From assembly GCF_055900595.2 (NCBI RefSeq), contig NZ_CM148325.1: 64,000 nucleotides of DNA; one strand, written 5' to 3'. A program made the position numbers and the translations under genes. The first letter of the stretch is position 1. Every line of letters begins with the position of its first letter. The notes under the pieces were generated by a model. The model saw only the letters and a list, made by a program, of their open reading frames with translations, was not told the origin of the DNA and ran no database searches. Of this stretch, positions 1 to 54,884 are shown in pieces.

Positions 1-120
1 TTTACCACAGCCGTTTTTACCCACCAGGCCAACTTTCTGCCCGGGGTTGATGGTGGCGGTGGCATTATCCAGCAGGACGCGCACGCCGCGACGAATTTGT
101 AACGAGGAGAAAACAATCAT
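1..120 (-). CDS. yheS: ABC-F ATPase YheS, N-terminal 40 codons only (gene continues past window start)
   Basis: Reverse complement of 1..120 translates MIVFSSLQIRRGVRVLLDNATATINPGQKVGLVGKNGCGK with Walker A motif; matches remembered YheS N-terminus; divergent from kefG as expected. Confidence 0.85.
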   Translation of the reverse strand, partial: MIVFSSLQIRRGVRVLLDNATATINPGQKVGLVGKNGCGK

Positions 121-247
121 AAGGCGCCGTATGTTCAGACTATGTTAACTTATCATTATGATAATGTAATGTATGGGCGAGCTGCCGCACCGGGCGCAAT
201 GGTAGCCCAAAACAGCGACTATACACAAAAACCATACCGGGAGGGGG

Positions 248-801
248 ATGATGTCTCAGCCAGCGAAAGTTTTGCTGCTGTATGCCCATCCGGAATCTCA
301 GGACTCGGTGGCAAACCGGGTACTGCTTAAACCGGCCACGCAGCTCAGCAATGTTACCGTGCACGACCTTTATGCACACTATCCCGATTTTTTTATTGAT
401 ATCCCCCGTGAGCAGGCATTACTGCGCGAGCACGAGGTGATTGTCTTTCAGCACCCTCTTTATACCTATAGCTGCCCGGCGCTACTGAAAGAGTGGCTGG
501 ACCGGGTATTAAGCCGTGGTTTTGCCAGCGGGCCGGGAGGAAACCAACTGGCGGGAAAGTACTGGCGTAGCGTGATTACCACCGGCGAGCCGGAAAGTGC
601 TTACCGTTATGACGCATTGAATCGCTACCCGATGAGCGATGTTCTGCGCCCCTTTGAGCTGGCGGCGGGCATGTGCCGGATGCATTGGTTAAGTCCTATC
701 ATTATTTACTGGGCGAGACGGCAAAGCGCACAGGAGCTGGCGAGTCACGCCAGAGCCTACGGTGACTGGCTGGCAATCCGCTGTCTCCAGGAGGCTGCTG
801 A
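248..801 (+). CDS. kefG: KefG, quinone oxidoreductase-like ancillary subunit of the KefB K+ efflux system; apparent 1-bp frameshift near the 3' end (see findings)
   Basis: ORF 248..952 matches KefG for 176 residues then runs out of frame into kefB; expected TGA overlapping the kefB ATG at 799..801 is in the +1 frame. Confidence 0.85.
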
Positions 802-2606
802 TGGAAGGTTCCGATTTTTTACTCGCAGGAGTGCTGTTTCTCTTCGCGGCGGTGGCTGCGGTGCCGTTGGCATCGCGGCTGGGTATTGGCGCGGTGTTGG
901 GATATTTGCTGGCAGGGATTGCAATTGGCCCGTGGGGGCTAGGGTTTATTAGCGACGTCGATGAGATCCTCCACTTTTCGGAACTCGGCGTGGTATTCCT
1001 GATGTTTATCATCGGCCTTGAGTTGAATCCCTCCAAGCTTTGGCAACTGCGCCGTTCGATTTTTGGCGTAGGCGCGGCACAGGTGCTGTTAAGCGCGGCG
1101 TTGCTGGCGGGATTATTGATGCTGACGGATTTCGCCTGGCAGGCGGCGGTGGTCGGTGGCATTGGCCTTGCGATGTCTTCAACTGCAATGGCGTTGCAAT
1201 TGATGCGTGAGAAAGGGATGAATCGCAGCGAATCCGGCCAGTTAGGTTTCTCGGTACTGCTGTTTCAGGATCTGGCGGTGATCCCGGCACTGGCGTTAGT
1301 ACCGCTGCTGGCGGGATCGGCAGATGAACATTTTGACTGGATGAAGATCGGCATGAAGGTGCTGGCGTTTGTCGGCATGCTGATTGGGGGGCGCTATTTA
1401 CTGCGTCCGGTATTCCGTTTTATTGCTGCTTCTGGCGTGCGGGAAGTGTTCACTGCCGCGACGCTGTTGCTGGTGTTGGGTTCCGCATTGTTTATGGATG
1501 CGCTGGGGTTGTCGATGGCGCTCGGTACGTTTATTGCGGGCGTGCTGCTGGCGGAAAGTGAATATCGCCATGAACTGGAAACGGCTATCGATCCCTTCAA
1601 AGGCTTGCTGCTCGGACTGTTTTTTATCTCTGTCGGCATGTCGCTCAACCTCGGGGTGCTTTATACCCATCTGTTGTGGGTAGTGATAAGCGTGGTTGTG
1701 CTGGTGGCGGTGAAAATTCTCGTGCTGTATTTGCTGGCGCGGCTGTATGGCGTGCGTAGCTCAGAGCGGATGCAGTTTGCTGGCGTGTTGAGTCAGGGCG
1801 GTGAGTTTGCCTTTGTCCTCTTTTCTACCGCTTCTTCACAACGCTTATTCCAGGGCGACCAGATGGCGCTATTGCTGGTGACGGTGACGCTTTCCATGAT
1901 GACCACGCCGCTGCTGATGAAGCTGGTGGATAAATGGCTATCCCGCCAGTTTAACGGACCGGAAGAAGAAGACGAAAAACCGTGGGTCAACGATGATAAA
2001 CCCCAGGTCATAGTCGTGGGCTTCGGACGTTTTGGGCAGGTGATTGGTCGTTTGTTGATGGCCAATAAAATGCGCATTACCGTGCTGGAGCGGGATATCA
2101 GTGCTGTTAACCTGATGCGCAAATATGGCTACAAAGTTTATTACGGCGACGCCACGCAGGTAGATCTTTTACGTTCTGCGGGTGCAGAGGCCGCAGAGTC
2201 AATCGTCATTACCTGTAACGAACCGGAAGACACCATGAAGCTGGTGGAAATATGCCAGCAGCACTTCCCGCATTTGCATATTCTTGCGCGAGCGCGCGGA
2301 CGTGTGGAAGCGCATGAGTTATTACAGGCCGGGGTGACGCAGTTTTCCCGTGAAACATTCTCCAGTGCGTTAGAGCTGGGGCGCAAGACGTTGGTTACGC
2401 TTGGGATGCATCCGCATCAGGCACAGCGGGCGCAACTGCATTTTCGCCGCCTGGATATGCGGATGTTGCGGGAGCTCATACCGATGCATGCCGATACCGT
2501 ACAAATTTCTCGCGCCAGGGAAGCCCGACGCGAACTGGAAGAGATCTTCCAGCGTGAAATGCAACAAGAACGACGCCAGCTGGATGGCTGGGATGAATTT
2601 GAGTAG
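801..2606 (+). CDS. kefB: Glutathione-regulated potassium-efflux system protein KefB (601 aa)
   Basis: ORF 762..2606; start taken at internal ATG 801 ([13 protein letters not shown]...), giving canonical 601 aa; multi-TM CPA2 domain plus C-terminal KTN/Rossmann domain (VVGFGRFG). Confidence 0.95.
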
Positions 2607-2615
2607 AGGATAACG

Positions 2616-2816
2616 ATGGCAATCCGAAAACGTTTTATTGCGGGCGCAAAATGCCCGGCCTGTCAGGCGCAGGATTCAATGGCGATGTGGCGCGAAAATA
2701 ATATTGATATTGTTGAATGTGTTAAGTGCGGACATCAAATGCGAGAAGCAGACAAAGAAGCCCGCGATCACGTTCGCAAAGATGAGCAAGTGATCGGGAT
2801 TTTTCATCCGGACTAG
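2616..2816 (+). CDS. yheV: Small zinc-ribbon protein YheV (66 aa)
   Basis: 66-aa ORF with two CxxC pairs, immediately downstream of kefB as in E. coli. Confidence 0.85.
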   Translation: MAIRKRFIAGAKCPACQAQDSMAMWRENNIDIVECVKCGHQMREADKEARDHVRKDEQVIGIFHPD

Positions 2817-2910
2817 CGATATGCGCCGAGATTTTTTAAGCTAGTGAGTACACGGCTGCAGAATTCCGCTACAATCTGCGCCACTATTCTTCCCATGCTC
2901 AGGAGATATC

Positions 2911-3501
2911 ATGAAAGTAGCAAAAGACCTGGTGGTCAGCCTGGCCTATCAGGTACGTACAGAAGACGGTGTGTTGGTTGATGAGTCTCCGGTGAGTGCG
3001 CCGCTGGACTACCTGCATGGTCACGGTTCCCTGATCTCTGGCCTGGAAACGGCGCTGGAAGGTCACGAAGTTGGCGACAAATTTGATGTCGCTGTTGGCG
3101 CGAACGACGCTTATGGTCAATACGACGAAAACCTGGTGCAGCGCGTTCCTAAAGATGTATTTATGGGCGTTGATGAACTGCAGGTTGGTATGCGTTTCCT
3201 GGCTGAAACCGACCAGGGTCCGGTACCGGTTGAAATCACTGCGGTTGAAGACGATCACGTCGTGGTTGATGGTAACCACATGCTGGCCGGTCAGAACCTG
3301 AAATTCAACGTTGAAGTTGTGGCGATTCGCGAAGCGACTGAAGAAGAGCTGGCTCATGGCCACGTTCACGGTGCGCACGATCATCACCACGATCACGACC
3401 ACGACGGTTGCTGCGGTGGTCATGGCCACGATCACGGTCATGAGCACGGTGGCGAAGGCTGCTGTGGCGGTAAAGGTAACGGCGGTTGCGGTTGCCACTA
3501 A
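2911..3501 (+). CDS. slyD: FKBP-type peptidyl-prolyl isomerase / metallochaperone SlyD (196 aa)
   Basis: N-terminal MKVAKDLVVSLAYQVRTEDG and histidine/cysteine-rich C-terminal tail typical of SlyD. Confidence 0.97.
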   Translation: MKVAKDLVVSLAYQVRTEDGVLVDESPVSAPLDYLHGHGSLISGLETALEGHEVGDKFDVAVGANDAYGQYDENLVQRVPKDVFMGVDELQVGMRFLAETDQGPVPVEITAVEDDHVVVDGNHMLAGQNLKFNVEVVAIREATEEELAHGHVHGAHDHHHDHDHDGCCGGHGHDHGHEHGGEGCCGGKGNGGCGCH

Positions 3502-3520
3502 TACCGAAAAAGTGACAAAA

Positions 3521-3546
3521 AAGCGGGGAATCCCCGCTTTTTTTAC
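3521..3546. terminator. Bidirectional rho-independent terminator between slyD (+) and slyX (-)
   Basis: GC hairpin gcgggg-aatc-cccgc flanked by an A run on one side and a T run on the other. Confidence 0.6.
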
Positions 3547-3549
3547 GCC

Positions 3550-3768
3550 TCAATAATGTGGCGGTGGCGTTTCTTCAGCCTGCGACGCGATGTTCGACGG
3601 CTGGCTGGCTTTTAGCTTCTCGGTCAGCAGACGCAGATGATCGCGCAGTTTCGCCATCTCCATTTCATGAGCGGTCACCGTGACGTTCAGTTCTTCAATG
3701 GTGATTTCCTGAAAAGCCAGTCGGCTCTCCAGCTCTGCCAGGCGTGCTTCCAATGATAAATCCTGCAT
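3550..3768 (-). CDS. slyX: Protein SlyX (72 aa)
   Basis: 72-aa coiled-coil [24 protein letters not shown]..., convergent with slyD. Confidence 0.9.
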
Positions 3769-3988
3769 GATTCACCTCTTTTGTCGAATGGTCGCCGCGG
3801 ATTTTACTTAACTTTGCTGCCCGAGACAGCACTCATTTCGCGGTCATCGAAACTAATTTAAACAAAAAGAGTCTGAAAATAGATGATAATAGGGCGTGTC
3901 TGTATGTAGATTTGTTCGACAACGCTTTATAGTACCCTTCTGATAATAGTTAACCCTGGGGTGAGATGCCCCGATCCTGGAGATATGG

Positions 3989-4801
3989 ATGAAATCACTG
4001 TTTAAAGTAACGCTGCTGGCGACCACAATGGCCGTTGCCCTGCATGCACCGATCACTTTTGCTGCTGAAGCTGCAAAACCTGCTACAACTGCTGACAGCA
4101 AAGCAGCGTTCAAAAATGACGATCAGAAATCAGCTTATGCACTGGGTGCTTCGCTGGGTCGTTACATGGAAAACTCTCTTAAAGAACAAGAAAAACTGGG
4201 CATCAAACTGGATAAAGATCAGCTGATCGCGGGTGTTCAGGATGCATTTGCTGATAAGAGCAAACTCTCCGACCAAGAGATCGAACAGACACTGCAAGCA
4301 TTCGAAGCTCGCGTGAAGTCTTCTGCTCAGGCGAAGATGGAAAAAGACGCGGCAGATAACGAAGCGAAAGGTAAAGAGTACCGCGAGAAATTTGCCAAAG
4401 AGAAAGGTGTGAAAACCTCTTCAACTGGTCTGGTTTATCAGGTAGTAGAAGCCGGTAAAGGCGAAGCACCGAAAGACAGCGATACTGTTGTCGTGAACTA
4501 CAAGGGTACGCTGATCGACGGTAAAGAGTTCGACAACTCTTACACCCGTGGTGAACCGCTCTCTTTCCGTCTGGACGGTGTTATTCCGGGTTGGACAGAA
4601 GGTCTGAAGAACATCAAGAAAGGCGGTAAGATCAAACTGGTTATTCCACCAGAACTGGCTTACGGCAAAGCGGGTGTTCCGGGGATCCCACCGAATTCTA
4701 CCCTGGTGTTTGACGTAGAGCTGCTGGATGTGAAACCAGCGCCGAAGGCTGATGCAAAGCCGGAAGCTGATGCGAAAGCCGCAGATTCTGCTAAAAAATA
4801 A
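3989..4801 (+). CDS. fkpA: Periplasmic FKBP-type peptidyl-prolyl isomerase FkpA (270 aa)
   Basis: Signal peptide MKSLFKVTLLATTMAVALHAPITFA, FKBP domain, lysine/alanine-rich C-terminus. Confidence 0.96.
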   Translation: MKSLFKVTLLATTMAVALHAPITFAAEAAKPATTADSKAAFKNDDQKSAYALGASLGRYMENSLKEQEKLGIKLDKDQLIAGVQDAFADKSKLSDQEIEQTLQAFEARVKSSAQAKMEKDAADNEAKGKEYREKFAKEKGVKTSSTGLVYQVVEAGKGEAPKDSDTVVVNYKGTLIDGKEFDNSYTRGEPLSFRLDGVIPGWTEGLKNIKKGGKIKLVIPPELAYGKAGVPGIPPNSTLVFDVELLDVKPAPKADAKPEADAKAADSAKK

Positions 4802-4810
4802 GCATTAAGA

Positions 4811-4845
4811 ACCGCCGCCTGACCAGGCGGCGGTTTTTTTTATTA
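4811..4845 (+). terminator. Rho-independent terminator after fkpA
   Basis: Hairpin ccgccgcctg-acc-aggcggcgg followed by T8. Confidence 0.7.
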
Positions 4846-4968
4846 CAGGCCGGATATAATTAGTGCTGGAAAGCGGAACCTCCGCTGTATTAATTTAGTT
4901 ACCCGCATCATTAATGAGCCTGCCCTGAAAAGTTAACGACAGGCTCCTGAAAAGGAGTGTTTTTTTTC

Positions 4969-6076
<1,108 letters not shown>

Positions 6077-6077
<1 letters not shown>

Positions 6078-6436
6078 TGAAACGAATTGCGTTTGTTTTT
6101 TCTACTGCGCCTCATGGTACCGCTGCAGGCCGGGAAGGTTTAGATGCTTTACTGGCAACTTCCGCATTAACTGACGATCTGGCTGTCTTCTTTATTGCTG
6201 ATGGCGTTTTTCAGCTGTTGCCAGGACAAAAGCCCGATGCAGTGCTGGCGCGTGATTACATTGCCACTTTTAAATTGTTGGGTCTGTACGACATTGAACA
6301 GTGCTGGGTTTGTGCGGCTTCACTGCGCGAACGCGGGTTAGATCCGCAGACCCCCTTTGTTGTCGAAGCCACGCCGCTCGAAGCAGATGCCTTACGCCGC
6401 GAACTCGCCAACTACGATGTTATTTTGAGGTTTTGA
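6077..6436 (+). CDS. tusC: Sulfurtransferase complex subunit TusC (119 aa)
   Basis: 119-aa DsrF-like ORF directly coupled to tusD. Confidence 0.95.
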
Positions 6437-6443
6437 GGCGTTT

Positions 6444-6731
6444 ATGCTGCACACATTACATCGTTCACCCTGGCTGACGGATTTTGCTGCGCTGTTGCGT
6501 CTACTCAGTGAAGGCGACGAACTGCTATTATTGCAAGATGGTGTAACTGCCGCAGTTGACGGTAACCGCTACCTTGAAAGTCTGCGTAATGCCCCCATTA
6601 AGGTCTATGCCCTGAACGAAGACCTTATTGCCCGCGGTTTGACTGGTCAAATTTCTAACGACATCATTCCCATTGACTATACTGATTTCGTCAGACTTAC
6701 GGTTAAGCACTCCAGCCAGATGGCCTGGTGA
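6444..6731 (+). CDS. tusB: Sulfurtransferase complex subunit TusB (95 aa)
   Basis: 95-aa DsrH-like ORF; completes the tusDCB set upstream of rpsL. Confidence 0.95.
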
Positions 6732-6753
6732 TGGCGGGATCGTTGTATATTTC

Positions 6754-7231
<478 letters not shown>

Positions 7232-7312
7232 TGGTTCTCCGTTAAGTAAGGCCAAACGTTTTAACTTAAATGTCAAACTAAACTCGTAGAGTTTTGGACA
7301 ATCCTGAATTAA

Positions 7313-7798
<486 letters not shown>

Positions 7799-7882
7799 TC
7801 CCTTCGGAGTTTTAGTCACCAGGCGGGCGCTTCCAGTAAGCAGCCCGCTTTGGGCTACTTAAATTGAACGCCTAAAAGATAA

Positions 7883-10009
<2,127 letters not shown>

Positions 10010-10022
10010 GCCTAAGGGTTAA

Positions 10023-11264
<1,242 letters not shown>

Positions 11265-25273: not shown

Positions 25274-26263
25274 ATGCAGGGTTCTGTGACAGAGTTTCTA
25301 AAACCGCGCCTGGTTGATATCGAGCAAATGAGTTCGACGCACGCCAAGGTGACCCTTGAGCCTTTAGAGCGTGGCTTTGGCCATACTCTGGGTAACGCAC
25401 TGCGCCGTATTCTGCTCTCATCGATGCCGGGTTGCGCGGTGACCGAGGTTGAGATTGATGGTGTACTACATGAGTACAGCACCAAAGAAGGCGTTCAGGA
25501 AGATATCCTGGAAATCCTGCTCAACCTGAAAGGGCTGGCGGTGAGAGTTCAGGGCAAAGATGAAGTTATTCTTACCTTGAATAAATCTGGCATTGGCCCT
25601 GTGACTGCAGCCGATATCACCCACGACGGTGATGTCGAAATCGTCAAGCCGCAGCACGTGATCTGCCACCTGACCGATGAGAACGCGTCTATTAGCATGC
25701 GTATCAAAGTTCAGCGCGGTCGTGGTTATGTGCCGGCTTCTACCCGAATTCATTCGGAAGAAGATGAGCGCCCAATCGGCCGTCTGCTGGTCGACGCATG
25801 CTACAGCCCTGTGGAGCGTATTGCCTACAATGTTGAAGCAGCGCGTGTAGAACAGCGTACCGACCTGGACAAGCTGGTCATCGAAATGGAAACCAACGGC
25901 ACAATCGATCCTGAAGAGGCGATTCGTCGTGCGGCAACCATTCTGGCTGAACAACTGGAAGCTTTCGTTGACTTACGTGATGTACGTCAGCCTGAAGTGA
26001 AAGAAGAGAAACCAGAGTTCGATCCGATCCTGCTGCGCCCTGTTGACGATCTGGAATTGACTGTCCGCTCTGCTAACTGCCTTAAAGCAGAAGCTATCCA
26101 CTATATCGGTGATCTGGTACAGCGTACCGAGGTTGAGCTCCTTAAAACGCCTAACCTTGGTAAAAAATCTCTTACTGAGATTAAAGACGTGCTGGCTTCC
26201 CGTGGACTGTCTCTGGGCATGCGCCTGGAAAACTGGCCACCGGCAAGCATCGCTGACGAGTAA
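25274..26263 (+). CDS. rpoA: DNA-directed RNA polymerase subunit alpha (329 aa)
   Basis: [69 protein letters not shown]... Confidence 0.98.
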
Positions 26264-26279
26264 CCGGATCACAGGTTAA

Positions 26280-26687
<408 letters not shown>

Positions 26688-26700
26688 TCTGAAGCAACGT

Positions 26701-26730
26701 AAAAAAACCCGCCCCGGCGGGTTTTTTTAT
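26701..26730 (+). terminator. alpha operon rho-independent terminator
   Basis: A run, hairpin acccgcc-cc-ggcgggt, then T7. Confidence 0.8.
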
Positions 26731-26793
26731 ACCCGTAGTATCCCCACTTATCTACAATAGCTGTACTCTTTTTGTTCATCCCCTGGAGTATTT

Positions 26794-27162
26794 ATGTGGT
26801 TACTTGACCAGTGGGCAGAGCGCCATATAGCAGAAGCGCAAGCGAAAGGTGAGTTTGATAACCTAGCTGGTAGCGGCGAACCATTAATCCTGGATGATGA
26901 TTCCCACGTGCCACCAGAATTACGTGCGGGGTATCGCTTGTTGAAGAATGCTGGTTGCTTACCGCCAGAACTTGAGCAACGGAGGGAAGCAATTCATCTT
27001 ATGGATATCCTCGAAGGTATCCGTCACGATGATCCGCAATATCAAGAGATTAGTCGTCGATTGTCATTACTGGAGTTAAAGCTGCGACAAGCAGGATTGA
27101 GTACCGATTTTTTACGCGGCGATTATGCTGACAAGTTGTTGAATAAAATCAACGATAACTAG
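26794..27162 (+). CDS. yhdN: DUF1992-family protein YhdN (122 aa)
   Basis: MWLLDQWAERHIAEAQAKGEFDNLAGSGEPLILDDD...; position between rplQ and zntR as in E. coli. Confidence 0.9.
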   Translation: MWLLDQWAERHIAEAQAKGEFDNLAGSGEPLILDDDSHVPPELRAGYRLLKNAGCLPPELEQRREAIHLMDILEGIRHDDPQYQEISRRLSLLELKLRQAGLSTDFLRGDYADKLLNKINDN

Positions 27163-27172
27163 TGGAGTATGT

Positions 27173-27598
27173 ATGTATCGCATTGGTGAGCTGGCAAAAA
27201 TGGCGGAAGTAACACCCGACACGATTCGTTATTACGAAAAGCAGCAGATGATGGAGCATGAAGTACGTACCGAAGGTGGGTTTCGCCTGTATACCGAAAG
27301 CGATCTCCAGCGATTGAAATTTATCCGCCATGCCAGACAACTTGGTTTCAGTCTGGAGTCGATCCGCGAGTTGCTGTCGATCCGTATCGATCCTGAGCAC
27401 CATACCTGTCAGGAGTCAAAAGGCATTGTGCAGGAAAGATTACAGGAAGTGGAAGCACGGATAGCCGAGTTGCAGAGTATGCAGCGTTCCCTCCAACGCC
27501 TTAACGATGCCTGTTGTGGGACCGCCCATAGCAGTGTTTATTGCTCGATTCTTGAAGCCCTTGAACAAGGGGCGAGTGGCATTAAGAGTGGTTGTTGA
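27173..27598 (+). CDS. zntR: MerR-family Zn(II)-responsive transcriptional regulator ZntR (141 aa)
   Basis: MYRIGELAKMAEVTPDTIRYYEKQQMMEHEVRTEGGFRLYTESDLQRLKFIRHARQLGFSLESIRELL...; MerR HTH and C-terminal cysteine cluster. Confidence 0.95.
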   Translation: MYRIGELAKMAEVTPDTIRYYEKQQMMEHEVRTEGGFRLYTESDLQRLKFIRHARQLGFSLESIRELLSIRIDPEHHTCQESKGIVQERLQEVEARIAELQSMQRSLQRLNDACCGTAHSSVYCSILEALEQGASGIKSGC

Positions 27599-27653
27599 TT
27601 TTTTGCACTGGCGGGATTACACTCGCGCCGTTAAATAACCAACTGGAGTTTTT

Positions 27654-27872
27654 ATGAGCCGATATCAGCATACTAAAGGACAGATAAAAGATAATGCGAT
27701 AGAAGCATTGCTACATGATCCTTTATTCCGACAGCGTGTAGAGAAAAATAAGAAGGGGAAAGGTAGTTACATGCGGAAAGGAAAACATGGCAATCGGGGA
27801 AACTGGGAGGCCAGTGGCAAGAAAGTAAATCACTTTTTTACCACTGGCCTTCTGCTTTCAGGGGCTTTTTAA
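27654..27872 (+). CDS. arfA: Alternative ribosome-rescue factor ArfA (72-aa ORF)
   Basis: [50 protein letters not shown]...; 3' end overlaps the convergent mscL 3' end. Confidence 0.88.
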
Positions 27873-28279
27873 GAGCGGTTATTCTGCTCTTTCAGCAAAT
27901 CACGAATTTCTGTCAGTAATACTTCTTCTTTAGTTGGCGCTGGCGCGGCTGCCGGTTCTTCTTTCTTACGATTCAGTTTGTTGATTAGCTTAATTGCCAT
28001 GAAGATGGCAAAGGCCACAATCAGAAAATCAAAGACGTTTTGAATGAAGACACCGTAATGCATCACAACAGCAGGGATATCCCCCTGCGCATCGCGTAGC
28101 GTGACAGCAAACTGTTTAAAATCGATCCCGCCAATTAATAAGCCCAGAGGAGGCATGATGATATCGGCAACCAGTGAAGAGACAATCTTCCCGAATGCCG
28201 CACCGATAATGACACCCACCGCCAAATCCACTACGTTCCCGCGCATCGCAAATTCGCGAAATTCTTTAATAATGCTCAT
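27869..28279 (-). CDS. mscL: Large-conductance mechanosensitive channel MscL (136 aa)
   Basis: [61 protein letters not shown]... Confidence 0.97.
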
Positions 28280-28408
28280 GTTATTCTCCCTATGAAGCCG
28301 ACAACCATAAGTCTAACAAATGTTAAGCCATTTTCCTGCCAGGAATGAATTTAATTAATCCTTGAGAATCAAAGGGAAATAATAAGGCGTCATAAGACGC
28401 CTTATTAA

Positions 28409-29785
28409 TTACAAAAAGAAAGGACTTGGCTGGAAGAGTCTTTCGACGTCGGTAATAAACTTTTTATCTGTGAGGAACATAATTACATGATCGCCTTGCT
28501 CAATACGCAGATTGTCATTGGCAATCATCACATCATTGCCGCGTACTACAGCACCAATAATCGTTCCTGGCGGTAGCTTGATTTCGTCAATGACTCTGCC
28601 GACAACGCGTGAGGTGCTTTCATCACCGTGAGCAACGGCTTCAATAGCTTCTGCTACGCCGCGGCGCAATGAGGAAACACCAACAATATCTGCTTTTCGC
28701 ACATGGCTAAGCAACGCAGAGATGGTCGCTTGTTGCGGTGAAATTGCAATATCGATCACGCTCCCCTGAACCAGATCCACATAAGCGCGACGCTGGATCA
28801 ATACCATCACCTTTTTCGCGCCCATACGTTTGGCGAGCATGGCGGACATAATATTGGCCTCGTCATCGTTGGTGACGGCAATAAACAGATCAACTTGATC
28901 GATGTGCTCTTCAGCCAGCAGTTCCTGATCCGATGCATCACCAAAAAAGACGATCGTATTCTGCAGCTTTTCCGCCAGCTCGGCAGCGCGCTGTTGATTA
29001 CGCTCGATGAGTTTGACGCTGTAATCTTTTTCCAGACGACGCGCCAGCCCTGCACCGATATTACCGCCGCCAACCAGCATGATCCGCTTATACGGTTTTT
29101 CCAGACGTTGCAATTCACTCATCACCGCGCGGATGTGTTGCGAAGCGGCAATAAAGAACACTTCATCACCAGCTTCAACAATGGTCGAACCTTGCGGACG
29201 AATAGGGCGATCGTGGCGGAAAATGGCTGCCACACGAGTATCGATATGCGGCATATGTTCGCGCATGGTCGAAAGTGCATTACCAATCAGTGGGCCGCCA
29301 TAATAGGCTTTAACCACAGCCAGGCTGACTTTACCCTCAGCGAAGTTCACTACCTGCAGCGCGCCGGGATACTCAATCAGTCGGTAAATATTATCGATAA
29401 CCAGCTGCTCTGGTGCGATCAGATGATCAATCGGTACAGCATCTGAATGAAATAGCTTATCGGCATCGCGCACGTAGTCTGGTGAGCGGATACGAGCGAT
29501 GCGATTAGGGGTGTTGAAAAGTGAGTAGGCTACCTGGCAGGCAACCATATTGGTTTCATCTGAACTGGTTACAGCAACCAGCATATCGGCGTCGTCGGCA
29601 CCTGCCTCCCGCAATACGCGTGGATGAGAGCCATGCCCCTGCACGACTCGCAGGTCAAATTTATCCTGCAAGGTCCGCAGACGCTCACCGTTGGTATCGA
29701 CAACAGTAATATCGTTGTTCTCGCCAACCAGGTTTTCCGCCAGTGTGCCGCCAACCTGGCCGGCACCCAGAATGATAATTTTCAT
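28409..29785 (-). CDS. trkA: Trk potassium uptake system NAD-binding protein TrkA (458 aa)
   Basis: [48 protein letters not shown]...; two tandem Rossmann/KTN domains. Confidence 0.97.
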
Positions 29786-29806
29786 CAGTCGCGACCCGTT
29801 ATCTCA

Positions 29807-31096
29807 TCACTTTTTGATTAGCTTAGCGTAAAAGAAGCCGTCGCCCTCTTCGGCACCAGGCAGATTTTGCTTACCTGGTTGTTCTGGTGTTCCGGTTTCG
29901 CAAAGCATTGCATCTTCTGTGCGTTGCAGAAAGGCTTTAATTTGTTGGCTATTCTCTTCCGGTAACACTGAACAGGTGGCATAGACCAGGGTTCCACCGG
30001 ATTTTAAATGCGGCCAGATGGCGTCGAGAATTTCAGACTGCAACTGCGCGAGTTCAGGGATATCGCGATCGCGACGTAACCATTTAATATCCGGATGGCG
30101 ACGAATCACACCGGTTGCTGAACAAGGCGCATCTAATAAAATGCGATCAAACTGTTGCTCGCCACACCATTGGGAAGGGTAGCGGCCATCACCTTGTTTC
30201 ACGGTCGCCTTCATACCAAGGCGTTTTAAATTGTCGTAAACGCGAGAGAGGCGCTGTTCGTCAATATCAACCGCAACAACCTGCGCTTCTGGTGCCACCT
30301 CAAGGATATGCGTTGTTTTACCGCCGGGGGCAGCGCAAAGATCCAGAATGTGTTCACCGTTTTGTGGCGCAAGCCAGGCCATGCAACCTTGTGCTGATGC
30401 ATCCTGAACGGTAACCCATCCTTCTTCAAAACCTGGTAGCACATGAACAGGTGCAGGTGTTTCCAGCCGTACAGCATCAGGGTAATCCGCATGCGGGAAA
30501 CCTTTCATTCCTGCTTCATCCAGCAATGCAAGCCAGCTGTCGCGGGAATGATGCGTACGATTAACGCGCAGCCACATTGGCGGACGCTGGTTATTGGCTT
30601 CAATGATGGATTGCCATTGCTCTGGATACGCTTTTTGCAGACGCTTCAGCAACCAGGAAGGATGCAGATAACGTGCATCACTGGCATTAAACTCGGCTAA
30701 TAACTCTTCTTGCTGACGCTGGAACTGGCGTAATACGCCGTTAATCAACCCTTTAAGTTGCGGACGCTTAATTGCGACAGCACCTTCAACCGTTTCAGCC
30801 AGCGCAGCATGAGGTGGAATGCGGGTATAAAGCAGTTGATACAAACCAACCATAATCAGGTAATGCACAGTGCGCTGTTTGCCGGTCATCGGACGGGCCA
30901 TTAACTTATTAATCAGCCAGTCTAACTGTGAAAGCGTACGCAGTACGCCAAAGCACAATTCTTGAAGAAGTGCTTTGTCTTTATCGGAAACTTTTTGCTG
31001 GAGCGGTGGCAGAATGTTGCTTAATGATTGCCCTTGCTCGACGACTTGTTCAACGGCCTGTGCCGCCATGCTACGTAAATTACGTTGTTTTTTCAT
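29807..31096 (-). CDS. rsmB: 16S rRNA m5C967 methyltransferase RsmB (429 aa)
   Basis: Start taken at internal ATG giving [25 protein letters not shown]...; NusB-like N-domain plus SAM-dependent MTase domain; ORF track extends 7 codons upstream. Confidence 0.95.
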
Positions 31097-31141
31097 AAGT
31101 ATAAAAATGCCCGGCAAGACCGGGCTTAGAAGAGTGGACTA

Positions 31142-37067: not shown

Positions 37068-37219
37068 ACTCACCTCAACAATAAATGATTTCCTAATGAC
37101 TTTGGGTGCATTATTGGCCTAGTGCAAGTCTTTTAGTATGCAAAAAAGCACCGTTTTGTGTGCGAATGCAGCAAAAAGGGTGAAAAAACAACAAACAGAA
37201 AAAAAGATCAAAAAAGTAC

Positions 37220-37248
37220 TTGTGCAAAAAATTGGGATCCCTATAATG
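37220..37248 (+). promoter_or_regulatory. rrn P1 promoter (-35 TTGTGC 37220..37225, -10 TATAAT 37243..37248) with A/T-rich UP/Fis region upstream (about 37100..37219)
   Basis: Canonical rrn P1 architecture: consensus -10, 17-bp spacer, A-tract-rich upstream element. Confidence 0.7.
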
Positions 37249-37327
37249 CGCCTCCGTTGAGACGACAACGTGAAACACTTCACAAGATGGTCGTAACAAC
37301 AAAGAGAAAAAATCCTGAAATTCAGGG

Positions 37328-37355
37328 TTGACTCTGAAAGAGGAAAGCGTAATAT
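37328..37355 (+). promoter_or_regulatory. rrn P2 promoter (-35 TTGACT 37328..37333, -10 TAATAT 37350..37355)
   Basis: Second promoter about 110 bp downstream of P1, as in E. coli rrn operons. Confidence 0.65.
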
Positions 37356-37396
37356 ACGCCACCTCGCGACAGTGAGCTGAAAGCCGCGTCGCAACT

Positions 37397-37408
37397 GCTC
37401 TTTAACAA
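37397..37408 (+). promoter_or_regulatory. rrn leader boxA antitermination element (GCTCTTTAACAA)
   Basis: Exact boxA consensus in the 16S leader. Confidence 0.8.
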
Positions 37409-37539
37409 TTTATCAGACAATCTGTGTGGGCACTCGAAGATACGGATTCTTAACGTCGCAAGACGAAAAATGAATACCAAGTCTCAAGAGTGAACACGTA
37501 ATTCATTACGAAGTTTAATTCTTTGAGCATCAAACTTTT

Positions 37540-39081
<1,542 letters not shown>

Positions 39082-39149
39082 CCTGAAAGAACTGTGCTTT
39101 GCAGTGCTCACACAGATTGTCTGATGAAAATGAGCAGTAAAACCTCTAC

Positions 39150-39226
<77 letters not shown>

Positions 39227-39268
39227 AATTTGCACCGCAAATTTGAAGAGGTTTTAACTACATGTTAT

Positions 39269-39344
39269 GGGGCTATAGCTCAGCTGGGAGAGCGCCTGCT
39301 TTGCACGCAGGAGGTCTGCGGTTCGATCCCGCATAGCTCCACCA
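39269..39344 (+). tRNA. alaU: tRNA-Ala (anticodon TGC), 16S-23S spacer
   Basis: GGGGCTATAGCTCAGCTGGGAGAGCGCCTGCTTTGCACGCAGGAGGTCTGCGGTTCGATCCCGCATAGCTCCACCA; 76 nt. Confidence 0.95.
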
Positions 39345-39527
39345 TCTCTGTAGTGATTAAATAAAAAATACTTCAGAGTGTACCTGCAAAGGTTCACTGC
39401 GAAGTTTTGCTCTTTAAAAATCTGGATCAAGCTGAAAATTGAAACACTGAACAACGAAAGTTGTTCGTGAGTCTCTCAAATTTTCGCAACACGATGATGA
39501 ATCTCAAGAAACATCTTCGGGTTGTGA

Positions 39528-42432
<2,905 letters not shown>

Positions 42433-42525
42433 ACAACGCCGAAGGTGTTTTGGCGGATTGAGAGAAGATTTTCAGCCTGATACAGATTAAATCAGAACGC
42501 AGATGCGGTCTGATGAAACAGAATT

Positions 42526-42645
42526 TGCCTGGCGGCCTTAGCGCGGTGGTCCCACCTGACCCCATGCCGAACTCAGAAGTGAAACGCCGTAGCGCCGATG
42601 GTAGTGTGGGGTCTCCCCATGCGAGAGTAGGGAACTGCCAGGCAT
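42526..42645 (+). rRNA. rrfD: 5S ribosomal RNA (120 nt)
   Basis: TGCCTGGCGGCCTTAGCGCGGTGGTCCCACCTGACCCCATGCCGAACTCAG...GGGAACTGCCAGGCAT. Confidence 0.96.
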
Positions 42646-42796
42646 CAAATTACGAAGAATGGCACTGACCTTTGAGGCAGTTCACTACTCGATAAGAGAG
42701 TAGGACAAAAGCGAAAGCTTTTGAACGTTGCGAAGCAACGGCCCGAAGGGTGAATCGCGAAGTGATTCATAAACTGCCAGGCATCAAATTAAGCGT

Positions 42797-42872
42797 GCTG
42801 ATATGGCTCAGTTGGTAGAGCGCACCCTTGGTAAGGGTGAGGTCCCCAGTTCGACTCTGGGTATCAGCACCA
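42797..42872 (+). tRNA. thrV: tRNA-Thr (anticodon GGT), distal to first 5S
   Basis: GCTGATATGGCTCAGTTGGTAGAGCGCACCCTTGGTAAGGGTGAGGTCCCCAGTTCGACTCTGGGTATCAGCACCA; 76 nt. Confidence 0.95.
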
Positions 42873-42909
42873 CTTTTTAGGTTAAAGTTCGGCAGATTAG
42901 AAAAGAATT

Positions 42910-43029
42910 TGTCTGGCGGCAGTAGCGCGGTGGTCCCACCTGACCCCATGCCGAACTCAGAAGTGAAACGCCGTAGCGCCGATGGTAGTGTGGGGTCTCC
43001 CCATGCGAGAGTAGGGAACTGCCAGACAT
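42910..43029 (+). rRNA. rrfF: Second 5S ribosomal RNA (120 nt)
   Basis: TGTCTGGCGGCAGTAGCGCGGTGGTCCCACCTGACCCCATGCCGAACTCAG...GGGAACTGCCAGACAT; variant of first 5S. Confidence 0.95.
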
Positions 43030-43035
43030 CAAATA

Positions 43036-43076
43036 AAACAAAAGGCTCAGTCGGAAGACTGGGCCTTTTGTTTTAT
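43036..43076 (+). terminator. rrn T1-type rho-independent terminator
   Basis: Long hairpin aaaaggctcagtcggaagactgggcctttt followed by T-rich tract; near-identical to the classical rrnB T1. Confidence 0.85.
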
Positions 43077-43208
43077 CTGTTGTTTGTCGGTGAACACTCT
43101 CCCGAGTAGGACAAATCCGCCGGGAGCGGATTTGAACGTTGCGAAGCAACGGCCCGGAGGGTGGCGGGCAGGACGCCCGCCATAAACTGCCAGACATCAA
43201 ATCAAGCG

Positions 43209-43240
43209 AAAGGCCATCCGAAAGGATGGCCTTTTTGCTT
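43209..43240. terminator. rrn T2-type terminator, also positioned to terminate convergent yhdZ
   Basis: Hairpin aggccatcc-gaaa-ggatggcct flanked by A run upstream and T run downstream; lies between rrfF and the yhdZ stop. Confidence 0.8.
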
Positions 43241-43257
43241 TTCGAACTTACATTCAA

Positions 43258-44016
43258 TTAATGGATCACCTGCGATAAAAATGCCCTCGTACGCTCTGAT
43301 TTAGGATGCGCAAAAAACTCATCCGGTGCAGCTTGTTCCACTATCTCCCCACGATCCATAAAAATCACCCGATCAGCGACGGTTCGCGCAAACCCCATCT
43401 CGTGCGTTACGCACAACATTGTCATACCTGACTGCGCCAGCCCAATCATTGTATCCAGCACTTCTTTCACCATCTCCGGATCGAGCGCAGACGTAGGTTC
43501 GTCAAACAGCATGATCTTTGGTTTCATACAAAGTGAACGTGCTATGGCAACACGTTGCTGCTGACCACCAGAAATCTGTCCCGGAAACTTCTGGGCATGT
43601 TCGGCAATTCTCACCCGCTCAAGGTAATGTATCGCCAGAGCTTCAGCCTCTTTCTTAGGCATCTTGCGTACCCAAATCGGTGCCAGGGTACAGTTCTGTA
43701 GAACGGTCAGATGAGGGAAGAGATTGAAATGCTGAAAGACCATTCCCACTTCCTGCCTGACGCGCTCAATATTGCGGATATCTTCATTAAGTTCGATGCC
43801 ATCCACCACGATCCGTCCCTGTTGATGTTCTTCCAGATGATTAATACAACGAATGGTTGTCGATTTACCGGAACCAGAAGGGCCACACAGAACGATCCGT
43901 TCTCCCGGTTGCACGGTTAAATTTATATTTTTCAAAACATGGAATTGCCCATACCATTTATTGACGTTTTCCAGCGTAATCATCGCGTTAGCAGGTTGCA
44001 GTAAAATTTGGCTCAT
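43258..44016 (-). CDS. yhdZ: Polar amino-acid ABC transporter ATP-binding protein YhdZ (252 aa)
   Basis: Walker [13 protein letters not shown] signature [15 protein letters not shown], Walker [11 protein letters not shown]. Confidence 0.95.
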
Positions 44017-44023
44017 AGTGTCC

Positions 44024-45127
44024 TCAATGCGGTGTACGCCCGGTGTTAAAACGTTTTTCCAGATGTTGGCTATAACGTGACATGCTGAAACAGAAGATCC
44101 AGTAGATCAGCGCGGCGAAAACATACCCTTCCGTCGACATACCCAACCAGGCGGGATCAACGGTTGCCTGCTGAACGCTACTGAAAAGATCGAACAACCC
44201 GATGATGATCACCAGGCTGGTATCTTTGAAGAGTGCGATGATGGTATTTACCAGCCCAGGAATCACCAGCTTCAACGCCTGTGGCAGAATAACCAGCCCC
44301 TGGGTTTTCCAGTAACCCAACGCCAGCGACTCTGCCGCTTCATATTGCCCTTTAGGCAGCGCCTGTAATCCGCCTCGCACGACTTCCGCAACATATGCTG
44401 ACTGAAACAGGATCACGCCAACCAGCGCGCGGATCAATTTGTCGATACTGGTGCCTTCTGCCATAAACAACGGCAGCATGACCGAAGACATAAACAGAAC
44501 GGTAATCAGCGGTACACCGCGCCAGAACTCGATAAAAATGACCGATAAGATACGCACAATCGGCATATGGGAGCGGCGACCTAACGCCAGTAAGATCCCC
44601 CACGGCAGCGCCCCCGCAATCCCAACTGATGCAATAATTAAAGTGAGCGTCAGCCCGCCCCATTGCCTGGTTTCAACCCGTTCAAGACCAAGAAACCCGC
44701 CATACATCAGCCACCAGACAATCAGTGGGTAAATCACCGCCCAGACCGCAATATAGCGACCGCGATGCGGGAGTATTTTCCAGAACATTGGTGCGATAGA
44801 AACAAGGCCAATCAGTAATGCCAGGTTAATTCGCCAGCGTTGGTCGTGTGGGTAAAGCCCATACATAAACTGACCAAATCGTTCGTGGATGAAGACCCAA
44901 CAGGCACCTGCTTTTGTGCAGTCGGCACGCGTTGAGCCAACCCAGTTAGCCTGCAAAAATGCCCAGTTCAGCAATGGTGGGATCAGTTCCCACATCAACC
45001 ATATGCAGCCAATAGTCAGCAGGCTATTGCTCCAGCTGGAGAACAGATTTTTCCGCACCCACACCATCGCGCGGCTTGTGTTATGGCTCGCCGGGCGCGG
45101 GGGATGAGACAGCAATACTTTTGTCAT
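44024..45127 (-). CDS. yhdY: Amino-acid ABC transporter permease YhdY (367 aa)
   Basis: Multi-TM permease; start taken at second Met of the 368-aa ORF ([16 protein letters not shown]...). Confidence 0.92.
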
Positions 45128-45136
45128 CATGACTCC

Positions 45137-46318
45137 TTAGCGTTCAACGATCGCGATGCGGCGGTTATAGATATTCATCAGCAGCGAGATAGTCAGGCTG
45201 ATAATCAGATAGACCGACATGGTCATGGCTATAGTCTCGATGGCTTGCCCCGTCTGGTTTAGTACGGTGCCAGCAAACAGCGAAACCATATCCGGATAGC
45301 CAATAGCGGCGGCAAGAGAGGAGTTTTTGACGATGTTGAGATACTGGCTGGTTAATGGAGGAATAATCACTCGCAGTGCCTGAGGAATAATGACCTGGCG
45401 TAGCGTAACCGGGTTGGGCAATCCCAGTGACCTGGCAGCTTCATGTTGACCATAAGGCACCGCCTGAATCCCGGCGCGGATAATCTCGGCGATAAATGCA
45501 GAGGTATAAACCGAAAGCGCCAGCGTTAAGGCTGCCAGTTCAGGAATTAAAACCATCCCGCCGCGGAAATTAAAACCTTGTAGGGCTGGAACATCCCAGT
45601 GCAGTGCCGCGCCAAAAAGCCATTGCGCCAGTAAAGGCAAGCCAATGATTAATCCAACGGCGAACGGCCAGGTTCGGCGCAGTTGTCCGGTCTTTATCTG
45701 GTGTTTTTTATTAAAGCGATATAGCCCAACAGAAAGGGCTATAGCCATAACAACAGCCAGGATAAATGCAAGGAACCCGTCTCCCAGCTGCGGCGACGGA
45801 ATATAAAGCCCACGATTGCTTAAAAAGGCCAGATCAAACGCACTCACTGCCTGGCGTGGTCCGGGCAAATTGCGCAACACGGCAAAGTACCAGAAGAAGA
45901 TTTGCAGTAGCGGCGGAATATTACGGAAGATCTCAATATAAATTGTGGAAAGCTTTCGTAGCAGCCAGTTATCCGAAAGTCGTGCCAGACCGATAAAGAA
46001 GCCCAGAACAGAAGCGAATACAATACACAATGCAGAAACCAGCAGCGTATTGAGTAAGCCAACAATGAAAACGCGTCCGTAGGTATCACCCTGCTGGTAA
46101 TCGATCAAATGCTGGACAATACCGAAGCCAGCGCCGCGATCCAGAAAGGCAAAACCCGAAGTAATGCCACGATTACTGAGATTCGTCACAGTGTTGTGAA
46201 ATAGCCAACCAACAATGCCGACAACAGCAACAACGGCAAGGATCTGGAATAACCAGGCGCGAACCGTAGGGTTGGCAAAGGAGAGTGAGCCTTTAACGGT
46301 TGAGCGGCGATGAGACAT
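45137..46318 (-). CDS. yhdX: Amino-acid ABC transporter permease YhdX (393 aa)
   Basis: Multi-TM permease; start taken at internal Met (MSHRRSTVKGSLSFANP...), ORF track extends 6 codons upstream. Confidence 0.9.
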   Translation of the reverse strand: MSHRRSTVKGSLSFANPTVRAWLFQILAVVAVVGIVGWLFHNTVTNLSNRGITSGFAFLDRGAGFGIVQHLIDYQQGDTYGRVFIVGLLNTLLVSALCIVFASVLGFFIGLARLSDNWLLRKLSTIYIEIFRNIPPLLQIFFWYFAVLRNLPGPRQAVSAFDLAFLSNRGLYIPSPQLGDGFLAFILAVVMAIALSVGLYRFNKKHQIKTGQLRRTWPFAVGLIIGLPLLAQWLFGAALHWDVPALQGFNFRGGMVLIPELAALTLALSVYTSAFIAEIIRAGIQAVPYGQHEAARSLGLPNPVTLRQVIIPQALRVIIPPLTSQYLNIVKNSSLAAAIGYPDMVSLFAGTVLNQTGQAIETIAMTMSVYLIISLTISLLMNIYNRRIAIVER

Positions 46319-46385
46319 AGAAACCTCGGAAAGCATAACGCTGAAGAGAGCGCCGCCGTAGCGACGCTCGTTACCTCACACCGAC

Positions 46386-47411
46386 TTAACGCACGGGCGG
46401 CGCGTACTGAATACCGCCGTTATTCCAGAGATTATTTTGCCCACGTTTAATCTTCAGGGGGCTTTCTGAACCTACGTTACGCTCAAAAATTTCCGAGTAA
46501 TTACCCACCTGTTTGATGATGTTGTAAGCCCATTTATTATCCAGCTTCAGATCTTTACCGTAATCGCCCTCTTTACCCAGCAGATGCGCCATATCAGGCG
46601 TTGCAGGATTAGCCGCTTTTTCATCAACGTTTTGCGAATTAACGCCCATCTCTTCAGCATTCAGCATGGCGAAAAGCGTCCAGCGCACTATAGAGAACCA
46701 TTCATCATCGCCACGACGAACTACCGGCCCAAGCGGTTCTTTAGAGATAACTTCCGGTAAAACAATCCATTCAGCTGGGTTGCTTAATTTGATGCGCAGG
46801 GCATACAGTTGTGATTGATCCGAGGCCAGCGTATCGCAGCGACCAGATTCCAGTGCCTTCGCGGATTCGTCAGAGCGATCGAAAGTCACTGGTGTGTACT
46901 TCATATTGTTTGCCTTGAAGTAATCGGCGACGTTGAGTTCGGTATCAGTACCCGCCTGAATACAGACTGTTGCGCCATCCAGTTCTTTCGCGCTTTTTAA
47001 TCCCGCTTTATCGTGCGTCAGGAAACCAATGCCGTCATAATAAGTGACGCCAGTAAATGCCATTCCCATACCGGCATCGCGAGAGGAAGTCCAGGTCGTA
47101 TTACGGGAGAGCAAATCCACCTCCCCTGACTGTAAAGCCGTGAAGCGTTCTTTTGCAGTGAGCGGGGTATATTTCACTTTCGTGTCGTCACTAAATACAG
47201 CTGCCGCAACACCACGACAAACATCTACATCAATACCTGAAAACTTACCGTCAGCATCGGCATAAGAGAACCCAGGTAATCCATCACTGATCCCGCATTG
47301 CACAAAACCTTTTTTCTGAACGGCATCAAGCGTCGCGCCAGCATGCGCCTGATTTGCAACGGCAAGCAGCACGCTGGCGGCAGCCAGTGTGGCTATCATC
47401 ATCTTTTTCAT
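46386..47411 (-). CDS. yhdW: Periplasmic amino-acid-binding protein YhdW/AapJ-like (341 aa)
   Basis: Signal peptide MKKMMIATLAAASVLLAVANQAHA followed by type-II substrate-binding fold; first gene of yhdWXYZ. Confidence 0.93.
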   Translation of the reverse strand: MKKMMIATLAAASVLLAVANQAHAGATLDAVQKKGFVQCGISDGLPGFSYADADGKFSGIDVDVCRGVAAAVFSDDTKVKYTPLTAKERFTALQSGEVDLLSRNTTWTSSRDAGMGMAFTGVTYYDGIGFLTHDKAGLKSAKELDGATVCIQAGTDTELNVADYFKANNMKYTPVTFDRSDESAKALESGRCDTLASDQSQLYALRIKLSNPAEWIVLPEVISKEPLGPVVRRGDDEWFSIVRWTLFAMLNAEEMGVNSQNVDEKAANPATPDMAHLLGKEGDYGKDLKLDNKWAYNIIKQVGNYSEIFERNVGSESPLKIKRGQNNLWNNGGIQYAPPVR

Positions 47412-47840
47412 AATGCTTCCTGTGAGGCGAAAATTATCGTTATAGGACGTTTGGGAAACGTCTTTTACCTGTCTGTGGCCATCCTCTTATAAGCAAAAGT
47501 AGTGCCAGCTTTTGCGCACGATTTCGCGTCGCAATAAGCTGAGTGTAGACAGGAAATAATAAAAACAGCGCCCCGCAATGGTGCGAAAATGAAACATGCG
47601 CCACATTTTGGCGCAAAATATTTACGCATTTTTACTAAGCAGAATAATGATTGTTAGCGTGAGTATATTTCTGGTAGGAATTGTGAAAATTAAATTGATG
47701 CGTTATTTCGAAAGCAGCGAAATAACGCGATATAACATGCTAAATCAGCAGGGAATTACCCAGCAGAATATAGCAATATTTTATCTTATGGAGAGATACT
47801 GTATCGTTAAACAGAGCGCGATACTCCGCGCCCTGTTCAG

Positions 47841-48062
47841 TTATTTCGACAGAGCGATGATCCCCATCGTCAGGCCAGCAACAGCTGCTGCCCCGCCAGC
47901 AATAGCCCCAGCCGTTTCCCAGTTATCCTGAGTCGTGCCTTTCATACAGGTATTGGTGTGAACCAGTCGACCCTGATCGTCATAAACCGGAACGCAGGGC
48001 GAATCGTGAGCACAGCCCGCCAGCAATGCGGTGAGCAATGCTACAGGAATTAATCTTTTCAT
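47841..48062 (-). CDS. yhdV: Small lipoprotein YhdV (73 aa)
   Basis: MKRLIPVALLTALLAGCAHD... lipobox LAGC; glycine/alanine-rich C-terminus. Confidence 0.88.
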   Translation of the reverse strand: MKRLIPVALLTALLAGCAHDSPCVPVYDDQGRLVHTNTCMKGTTQDNWETAGAIAGGAAAVAGLTMGIIALSK

Positions 48063-48314
48063 GGTGTTACCTCAGTAATAAACGCTAACGCTTAATAAGT
48101 TAACTCTCTTATTAACGAGCTGAATGCCATTTTATCACTGGAGGTTATAAATCTTGCGGCATGAATAATGACAAATTATGTGAATTGTAAAAATAGTGAA
48201 GGGAGCGGGAACTATAGAAATTTTTTAAAGAGTGAGTAGAAGAATATCTTATTAATTTTTATGGGTTTCACTGAAAATAATAAAGGCACCCGAAAGCGCC
48301 TTTATGTTTCTGAT

Positions 48315-51300: not shown

Positions 51301-51419
51301 GGCGCAATGGTTGGGTATTGGGCGACGGGCAATTGTAGGATCGCCAGTACACCCGCCATCATCAGAATAATGGCCAGCACCCATGCAAATATCGGTCGTC
51401 GAATAAAAAAGTTTGCCAT
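48315..51419 (-). CDS. acrF: RND multidrug efflux pump inner-membrane transporter AcrF (1034 aa)
   Basis: [71 protein letters not shown]...; AcrB-family 12-TM architecture. Confidence 0.96.
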
Positions 51420-51430
51420 GTCAGATTGCC

Positions 51431-52588: not shown

Positions 52589-52986
52589 TACTATTCCTCA
52601 AAAAACCAAAAGCGCGTTATTTACCTAAAAAGGCAACGCGTTAACTCGCAGAAAGAAAAATACAGTTCGCTATCCTACAAATTATCATTCGTCGATGTAA
52701 GGAATAGTTATGAATACTGGCGTCTCAAGGCACATAAACACAAAAAAAGATTAATATTCTACTGTTTTATTTTGACGCGGGTTGAAAGAGGTAGAATCAA
52801 ATTTTCGTAAATTGAAATATATATTGATAGAGTGAATGTATTTTAGGTAAATAATAAATGTTATTTATTTGACGATTTATAGCAACTCAATATTAGCCTC
52901 TCGTATAAATATACATTAGGTGATAGATTAACCTTCGCTATTTTCTCATCCTGTGTCGAATATATTTATTTCCTGAATAATTAATC
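52589..52986. promoter_or_regulatory. Divergent acrEF / acrS promoter-operator region (A/T-rich)
   Basis: 398-bp strongly A/T-rich intergenic region between divergent acrE and acrS; regulatory role from established acrEF biology. Confidence 0.5.
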
Positions 52987-53649: not shown

Positions 53650-53651
53650 AT

Positions 53652-53831: not shown

Positions 53832-53914
53832 TACCTGAGCCTGTGCATGTTTAACCAAGTCTGGCAGGAAATATACACGAAATGAATAATCTGAAAACCA
53901 GGCTTACACTTCCT

Positions 53915-54799: not shown

Positions 54800-54822
54800 G
54801 GTCACTCCCTTTGTGACACCTA

Positions 54823-54862
54823 TAAAAAAGGCGCTTCCCCATGCCGAGTAGCGCCTTTTTAA
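54823..54862 (-). terminator. Rho-independent terminator downstream of fis
   Basis: Minus-strand hairpin aaggcgct...agcgcctt followed by T run (read on minus strand), between fis stop and yhdJ start. Confidence 0.6.
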
Positions 54863-54884
54863 TCAAGCATTTAGCTAACCTGAA

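Follow-up and report, generated by a model that had tools for sequence, protein, structure and literature searches.

A one-off single-base frameshift, or a one-base assembly error, at the kefG-kefB junction of an Escherichia coli genome

The kefG-kefB junction and the frameshifted product

The 64-kb stretch of Escherichia coli DNA analysed here, referred to throughout as the window, opens with the 5' part of yheS on the minus strand, followed by kefG and kefB on the plus strand (Table 1). Ancillary and transporter genes of kef systems overlap by a few bases, and full Kef activity, but not all activity, depends on KefG and KefF (PMC10224563), which agrees with the statement in a first-pass annotation of this DNA that KefG is needed for full activity of KefB. 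The kefB gene carries both expected Pfam domains, Na_H_Exchanger and TrkA_N, and public assemblies contain the exact KefB protein in more than 50,000 blocks. The kefG gene directly upstream, whose product serves KefB, a glutathione-gated K+/H+ antiporter, as its ancillary subunit, lacks one base close to its 3' end.

Table 1. Features at the kefG-kefB junction, in window coordinates
Feature	Position	Strand	Basis or remark
GGAGG, Shine-Dalgarno-like element 5' of the kefG starts	240..244	+	Sequence reading; putative function
Frameshifted kefG ORF	248..952	+	Includes TAG stop at 950-952; 234 aa from ATG 248, 233 aa from ATG 251
Native part of kefG, codons 1-176 (ending AYGDWLA)	248..775	+	Alignment with relatives
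1-bp deletion site	775..776	+	AA in the window, AAA in relatives; ancestral codon 177 is AAT (Asn)
Out-of-frame tail, 58 codons (ending GARVY)	776..949	+	Translation
Dcm motif CCAGG	787..791	+	11 nt 3' of the deletion; site of the unrelated shift in database protein P0122 (see text), not of the deletion in the window
AGGAGG, putative Shine-Dalgarno of kefB	789..794	+	6 nt 5' of the kefB ATG (801-803); overlaps ancestral Pro-Gly-Gly codons
Ancestral kefG TGA stop, now out of frame	799..801	+	Shares its A with the kefB ATG (TGATG); sequence and RefSeq annotation of relatives
kefB, intact, 601 aa plus stop	801..2606	+	NCBIfam NF002973 (KefB equivalog), 1190 bits; residues 1-601, 602 model positions

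When the kefG stretch was aligned with four E. coli relatives, a single gap was found, the window reading GGC-AATCC where all four relatives read GGCAAATCC. The absence of an A at 775..776, proposed in the first-pass annotation from the letters of the window alone, was thereby borne out, with AAA in the relatives and AA in the window only. Re-inserting one A gives the repair product that had been foreseen, 184 aa with the C-terminus ANPLSPGGC followed by a stop. Left unrepaired, the ORF claimed to run for 234 aa from position 248 is present in the ORF listing and reads, as described, as 176 native residues followed by 58 new ones in place of the last eight (NPLSPGGC). The ancestral TGA indeed lies out of frame, and the shifted ORF continues to the TAG at 950-952, about 150 nt into kefB (152 nt to the end of the stop codon). 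One detail required correction: the overlap of the two genes had been given as ATGA, and it is TGATG, with one shared A, such that RefSeq ends kefG on the first base of kefB.

The two adjacent ATG codons of kefG account for two lengths of the intact protein. RefSeq starts the gene at the second, position 251, giving 183 aa, and the count of 184 aa runs from the first, position 248. The GGAGG element lies 6 nt before the second ATG and 3 nt before the first, and its better spacing to the second fits the RefSeq preference for the shorter form. Residues 1 to 176 are identical to those of WP_000081823.1, a common KefG protein of E. coli, and kefG differs from the closest complete genome by only two SNPs (535 and 697), both synonymous. 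As differences from relatives are synonymous only, the gene appears to be otherwise under purifying selection.

By profile, the product is still recognizable as KefG (YheR), the paralogue of KefF. It scores 344.7 bits against the KefG equivalog model NCBIfam NF003430, where the cut-off is 240, with residues 1 to 176 aligned to model positions 1 to 176 of 184, and Pfam Flavodoxin_2 (PF02525) matches residues 7 to 174 at 7e-44, covering profile positions 2 to 197 of 198, as expected of a flavodoxin-like fold. Residues 7 to 172 align by sequence with KefF of the KefC-KefF structures (3EYW, 3L9W, and 3L9X), and a further PDB match was 5LVA. With ordinary KefG the product thus shares residues 1 to 176, the Flavodoxin_2 domain, and its position directly 5' of kefB; it differs in having 58 out-of-frame residues in place of the last eight and a stop codon that no longer abuts the kefB start, the in-frame stop now lying at 950-952 rather than within the TGATG at 799-803. 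At 234 aa it also falls outside the KefG length range of 182 to 188 aa.

How much of functional value was lost with the native C-terminus can be judged from conservation and from structure prediction. In an alignment of 46 Enterobacterales KefG sequences, W174 and L175 are invariant and are retained in the window, and P178 is the only residue of the lost tail that is conserved at 90% or more; its loss breaks the C-terminal W-L-x-x-P motif. The codons GGA GGC specify the semiconserved Gly-Gly of the lost tail, and because they supply the AGGAGG of kefB, their conservation may reflect a constraint on nucleotides rather than on the protein. AlphaFold models the core mostly with confidence, with a last helix at residues 161 to 176, and assigns residues 187 to 234 a pLDDT below 50. 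The prediction is thus of an intact flavodoxin-like core followed by a disordered new tail; this tail is basic, with a pI of 10.7 and a high content of Gly, Arg, and Ala. Since conservation is low over most of the native tail, its loss may leave KefG functional.

Distribution of the shortened run and clonal context of the isolate

The AA allele was found in none of the 5,426 complete E. coli genomes when a 41-mer across the deletion was searched by BLAST. As megablast requires an exact 28-mer, a 41-nt query centred on the deletion seeds only genomes that carry AA, and the restored 42-mer, used as a positive control on the same set, matched 4,868 genomes, 4,816 of them exactly. Of the 5,412 complete E. 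coli genomes in which a 70-mer over the deletion located the locus, none matched it exactly, and the best 12 of these 5,412 matches all cover 71 bases. The gene is single copy, with a median of one place per genome. Beyond complete E. coli genomes, a 31-mer spanning the deletion was absent from the 100,044 species-representative genomes of GTDB and from JGI metagenome contigs, neither the 233-aa nor the 234-aa product had an exact match among about 15 billion proteins, and the junction DWLA/IRCLQ occurred in no cluster member of the closest extended KefG form recovered by homology search and cluster listing. A literature search on kefG frameshifts or pseudogenes returned nothing relevant.

No member of the lineage was present among complete RefSeq E. 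coli genomes, where best identities were 99.3 to 99.9%. Look-up of contigs encoding the exact KefB protein led only to unrelated lineages of about 98% identity. An exact look-up of the intact KefG sequence led to L021 (GCA_037285625.1), which matches positions 1 to 10,801 of the window with no mismatch and one gap, the kefG A. Further draft and GenBank relatives were found by exact look-up of two lineage-marker proteins, RpoA with M19 and AcrF with R688. L007 (ERZ25021421) differs from positions 15,274 to 36,263 by one mismatch, at which the window holds the ancestral base; L028 (GCA_050190815.1) differs from positions 38,315 to 61,419 only by a derived SNP of the window at 61,204; and L029, compared over 42,554 to 61,419, shows the same window SNP plus two SNPs of its own. 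These three comparisons, which add about 44 kb beyond the L021 span, contain no indels and one derived SNP. Across the roughly 55 kb compared with its sisters, the window thus has one private SNP and one private deletion, that in kefG.

To judge by these comparisons, the deletion allele is private to the isolate (or to its assembly), and it is neither a trait of the lineage nor a native form of the gene. The first-pass annotation had held that its reading would fall if a 234-aa form proved to be the conserved native product; such a form appeared in none of the collections above, and the near-clonal relative has an intact kefG.

Several other features of the window concern the lineage rather than kefG. 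In the lineage, RpoA V19M (window position 25,328, rpoA codon 19) and AcrF G688R (acrF codon 688, within window positions 48,315 to 51,419) distinguish these proteins from those of NZ_CP098223.1, the closest complete genome. As the exact RpoA and AcrF variants are present in 333 and 73 index blocks of public assemblies, respectively, they are markers of the lineage and not private changes. The only derived private SNP found, at 61,204, is T in the window and C in L028, L029, and NZ_CP098223.1, and it lies between a gene of the tagatose-bisphosphate-aldolase family and a divergently transcribed DeoR-family regulator. Two patches are dense in SNPs against NZ_CP098223.1, one at 26,000 to 31,100 with 154 SNPs across yhdN-zntR-arfA-mscL-trkA-rsmB-fmt and one at 42,500 to 45,100 with about 70 SNPs over yhdZ-yhdY; elsewhere there are few SNPs per 2 kb. 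L007 and L028, both clonal relatives, have these patches unchanged, which suggests lineage-defining imports by recombination. From about 59,200 to 64,000, beyond yhdT-panF, lies an intact sugar-utilization cluster comprising a sugar kinase, a DeoR/GlpR regulator, a class II aldolase of the tagatose-bisphosphate family, a substrate-binding protein, and an ABC ATPase, which is not known from that position in K-12.

A real mutation weighed against error

The first-pass annotation had offered two readings of the missing base, namely an error, in a homopolymer or in assembly, and a true strain-specific frameshift. That choice of two options stands. A three-base A run is no typical target of homopolymer error, given that the longer T7 and C5 runs of kefG are free of error. 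Our own reading is that, in this isolate, the AAA run at codons 176/177 of kefG was probably shortened by one A in a recent, private mutation. The locus would then resemble an ordinary strain-specific frameshift pseudogene, in which a gene otherwise under purifying selection has, in one genome alone, gained or lost a base of a short mononucleotide run. From such pseudogenes it differs in nothing substantive, its one particular point being that the lesion sits at a translationally coupled gene junction.

The alternative that carries real weight is a sequencing or assembly artefact, in which the isolate has AAA and an intact KefG of 183/184 aa and the consensus lost one A; we hold this to be a plausible explanation, if a tentative one. 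The allele is unique across all collections searched, and L021, nearly clonal with the window, differs by the kefG base alone over 10.8 kb, which is exactly what a lone consensus error would look like. A ratio of one private indel to one private SNP in about 55 kb is also a high share of indels, which speaks against a real mutation. Set against these points is the cleanness of the remaining sequence. No other private indel exists within the 64-kb window, which contains 256 homopolymers of at least 5 bases, 84 of them of at least 6 bases, and 188 CCWGG (Dcm) sites, none with a private indel, and companion private indels in long homopolymers or in Dcm/Dam motifs, the hallmark of such artefacts, are thus absent. 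Had the platform been prone to errors in homopolymers or methylation motifs, further traces would be expected, and the lack of them argues against a noisy assembly. The closest Dcm site lies 11 nt from the deleted base, itself part of a run of three, and GATC is absent within 60 nt of that base; kefG, being single copy, would permit short-read polishing without confounding repeats. In single-copy DNA, short-read or polished assemblies seldom drop one base of an A3 run.

Elsewhere, too, the window gives this impression of quality. Two other small indels separate it from the closest complete genome, a 5-bp indel in the fmt-rsmB spacer (about 31,100) and a 1-bp indel in the rrn leader (37,380), and both are common polymorphisms, the first occurring exactly in 1,690 genomes and the second (+A) in 4,742. 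A divergent patch at 43,247 to 43,257 is intergenic and common to the clonal relatives. All 79 of the 79 coding sequences compared lack an internal stop, length is altered in kefG alone, and the window contains no IS element and no other pseudogene, which, together with a short-read contig of 163 kb in one relative, makes a Shigella origin unlikely. Its rrn operon, at about 37,100 to 42,800, has two 5S genes, a 136-nt near-repeat at 42,515 to 42,650 and 42,900 to 43,034, with a tRNA-Thr between them and tRNA-Ile/tRNA-Ala in the spacer, according to the annotation of the syntenic NZ_CP098223.1.

We favour a real mutation over an assembly error, and it is the cleanness of the window that tilts the choice. 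The argument is weaker than it appears, however, because real slippage also favours long runs, and an event in an A3 run is somewhat unexpected under models of mutation and of error alike.

Public databases do hold extended KefG entries, and these add some weight to the possibility of error, as they probably derive from errors themselves. The best documented, P0122, is a protein of 233 aa (GHK17845.1, GHK36978.1, GHL22439.1, and GHL26291.1) that almost matches the product in the window in length and shares its out-of-frame tail. Its shift is a different one, five codons after that of the window, where loss of the central A of a Dcm motif turns CCAGG into CCGG in the Shine-Dalgarno region of kefB. 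The four source assemblies (L030 to L033; GCA_016586855.1, GCA_016587055.1, GCA_016586535.1, and GCA_016586475.1, with the locus near position 2,540) come from one project with consecutive accessions and have contigs of 2.5 to 5.3 Mb. They belong to a lineage other than that of the window, to which they are 96% identical. Sporadic indels are found nearby, yheS is broken in ways that vary among the assemblies, being either split or fused, and the annotated kefB product lacks 20 aa (581 aa). Dcm sites are linked with nanopore error, and the P0122 proteins are probably systematic long-read errors that were propagated into protein databases. With the loss of a Dcm-motif A confined to one project and accompanied by sporadic indels, we rejected P0122 as a natural precedent for a tolerated C-terminal frameshift in kefG. 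Other extended forms in Logan and ENA, several with multiple shifts per gene, do not contain the junction of the window.

That the 234-aa form is itself native, either conserved or programmed by a recoding site, so that this KefG variant would carry a functional extension over kefB, is very improbable: the ORF is long and open, and database ORFs share its out-of-frame tail, but the allele occurs in none of the 5,426 complete genomes, the clonal relative is in frame, Enterobacterales KefG homologues measure 182 to 188 aa, the tail reads a conserved kefB N-terminus in the -1 frame, with disorder predicted for it, the database look-alikes shift elsewhere and resemble artefacts, and no slippery sequence is present at GGC AAT CCG. 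With every relative in frame, the arrangement is unconserved, and the site lacks a slippery heptamer; on the comparative evidence, the product is not a conserved, programmed, or adaptive alternative.

Possible consequences for KefGB, and annotation

If the base was lost from the chromosome, as we consider probable, its consequences would arise both from the altered protein and from altered translation of the junction. A KefG with a disordered basic tail could be less stable or could bind less strongly to the regulatory (KTN) domain of KefB. In the ancestral arrangement, ribosomes would finish kefG on the kefB start codon, at TGATG, 6 nt past a strong Shine-Dalgarno sequence. In the window, they would instead cross the initiation region of kefB in the -1 frame and stop about 150 nt inside the gene, and, as they would no longer stop at TGATG, coupling by termination and reinitiation would be lost and the kefB start transiently occluded.

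There are also grounds for expecting little effect on KefB. The gene and its AGGAGG are unchanged by the deletion, and around its start the mRNAs of the two alleles are predicted to fold alike, no better than shuffled sequence does (z of -0.1 to -0.35), a result that gives no support to mRNA structure as a cause of obligatory coupling between kefG and kefB. With a strong Shine-Dalgarno of its own and a predicted fold that does not depend on the allele, KefB expression may be unaffected.

The net phenotype, on this analysis, would be that of a hypomorph, in which electrophile-triggered K+ efflux via KefGB is lowered without being abolished and KefFC is unaffected, and our best guess is that KefGB function would at most be lost in part. 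Among efflux systems, KefGB is the main one that S-lactoylglutathione activates in methylglyoxal stress (PMC3412212), for which reason a strain with a real mutation might tolerate methylglyoxal and other electrophiles somewhat less well. Such a strain could also provide a natural experiment on the part played by the KefG C-terminus and by translational coupling of kefG with kefB. The stronger proposal, that the deletion is real, that the variant protein is made, and that its tail, the lost coupling, and ribosome traffic over the kefB ribosome-binding site measurably lower or retune KefGB K+ efflux and cytoplasmic acidification under methylglyoxal or N-ethylmaleimide, strikes us as unlikely. 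Were it true, the isolate would be a natural hypomorph, informative about the dependence of KefB on the KefG C-terminus and on translational coupling.

In either case, the locus is a well-characterized kefG-kefB operon with a one-off frameshift or a one-base assembly error, an ordinary event with little importance beyond the isolate. An error would call for correction of a single base in the assembly. In annotation, the label kefG, frameshifted, is to be preferred to an entry as a 234-aa protein. A practical side result is that the public 233-aa "KefG" entries stem from the deletion in the Dcm motif.
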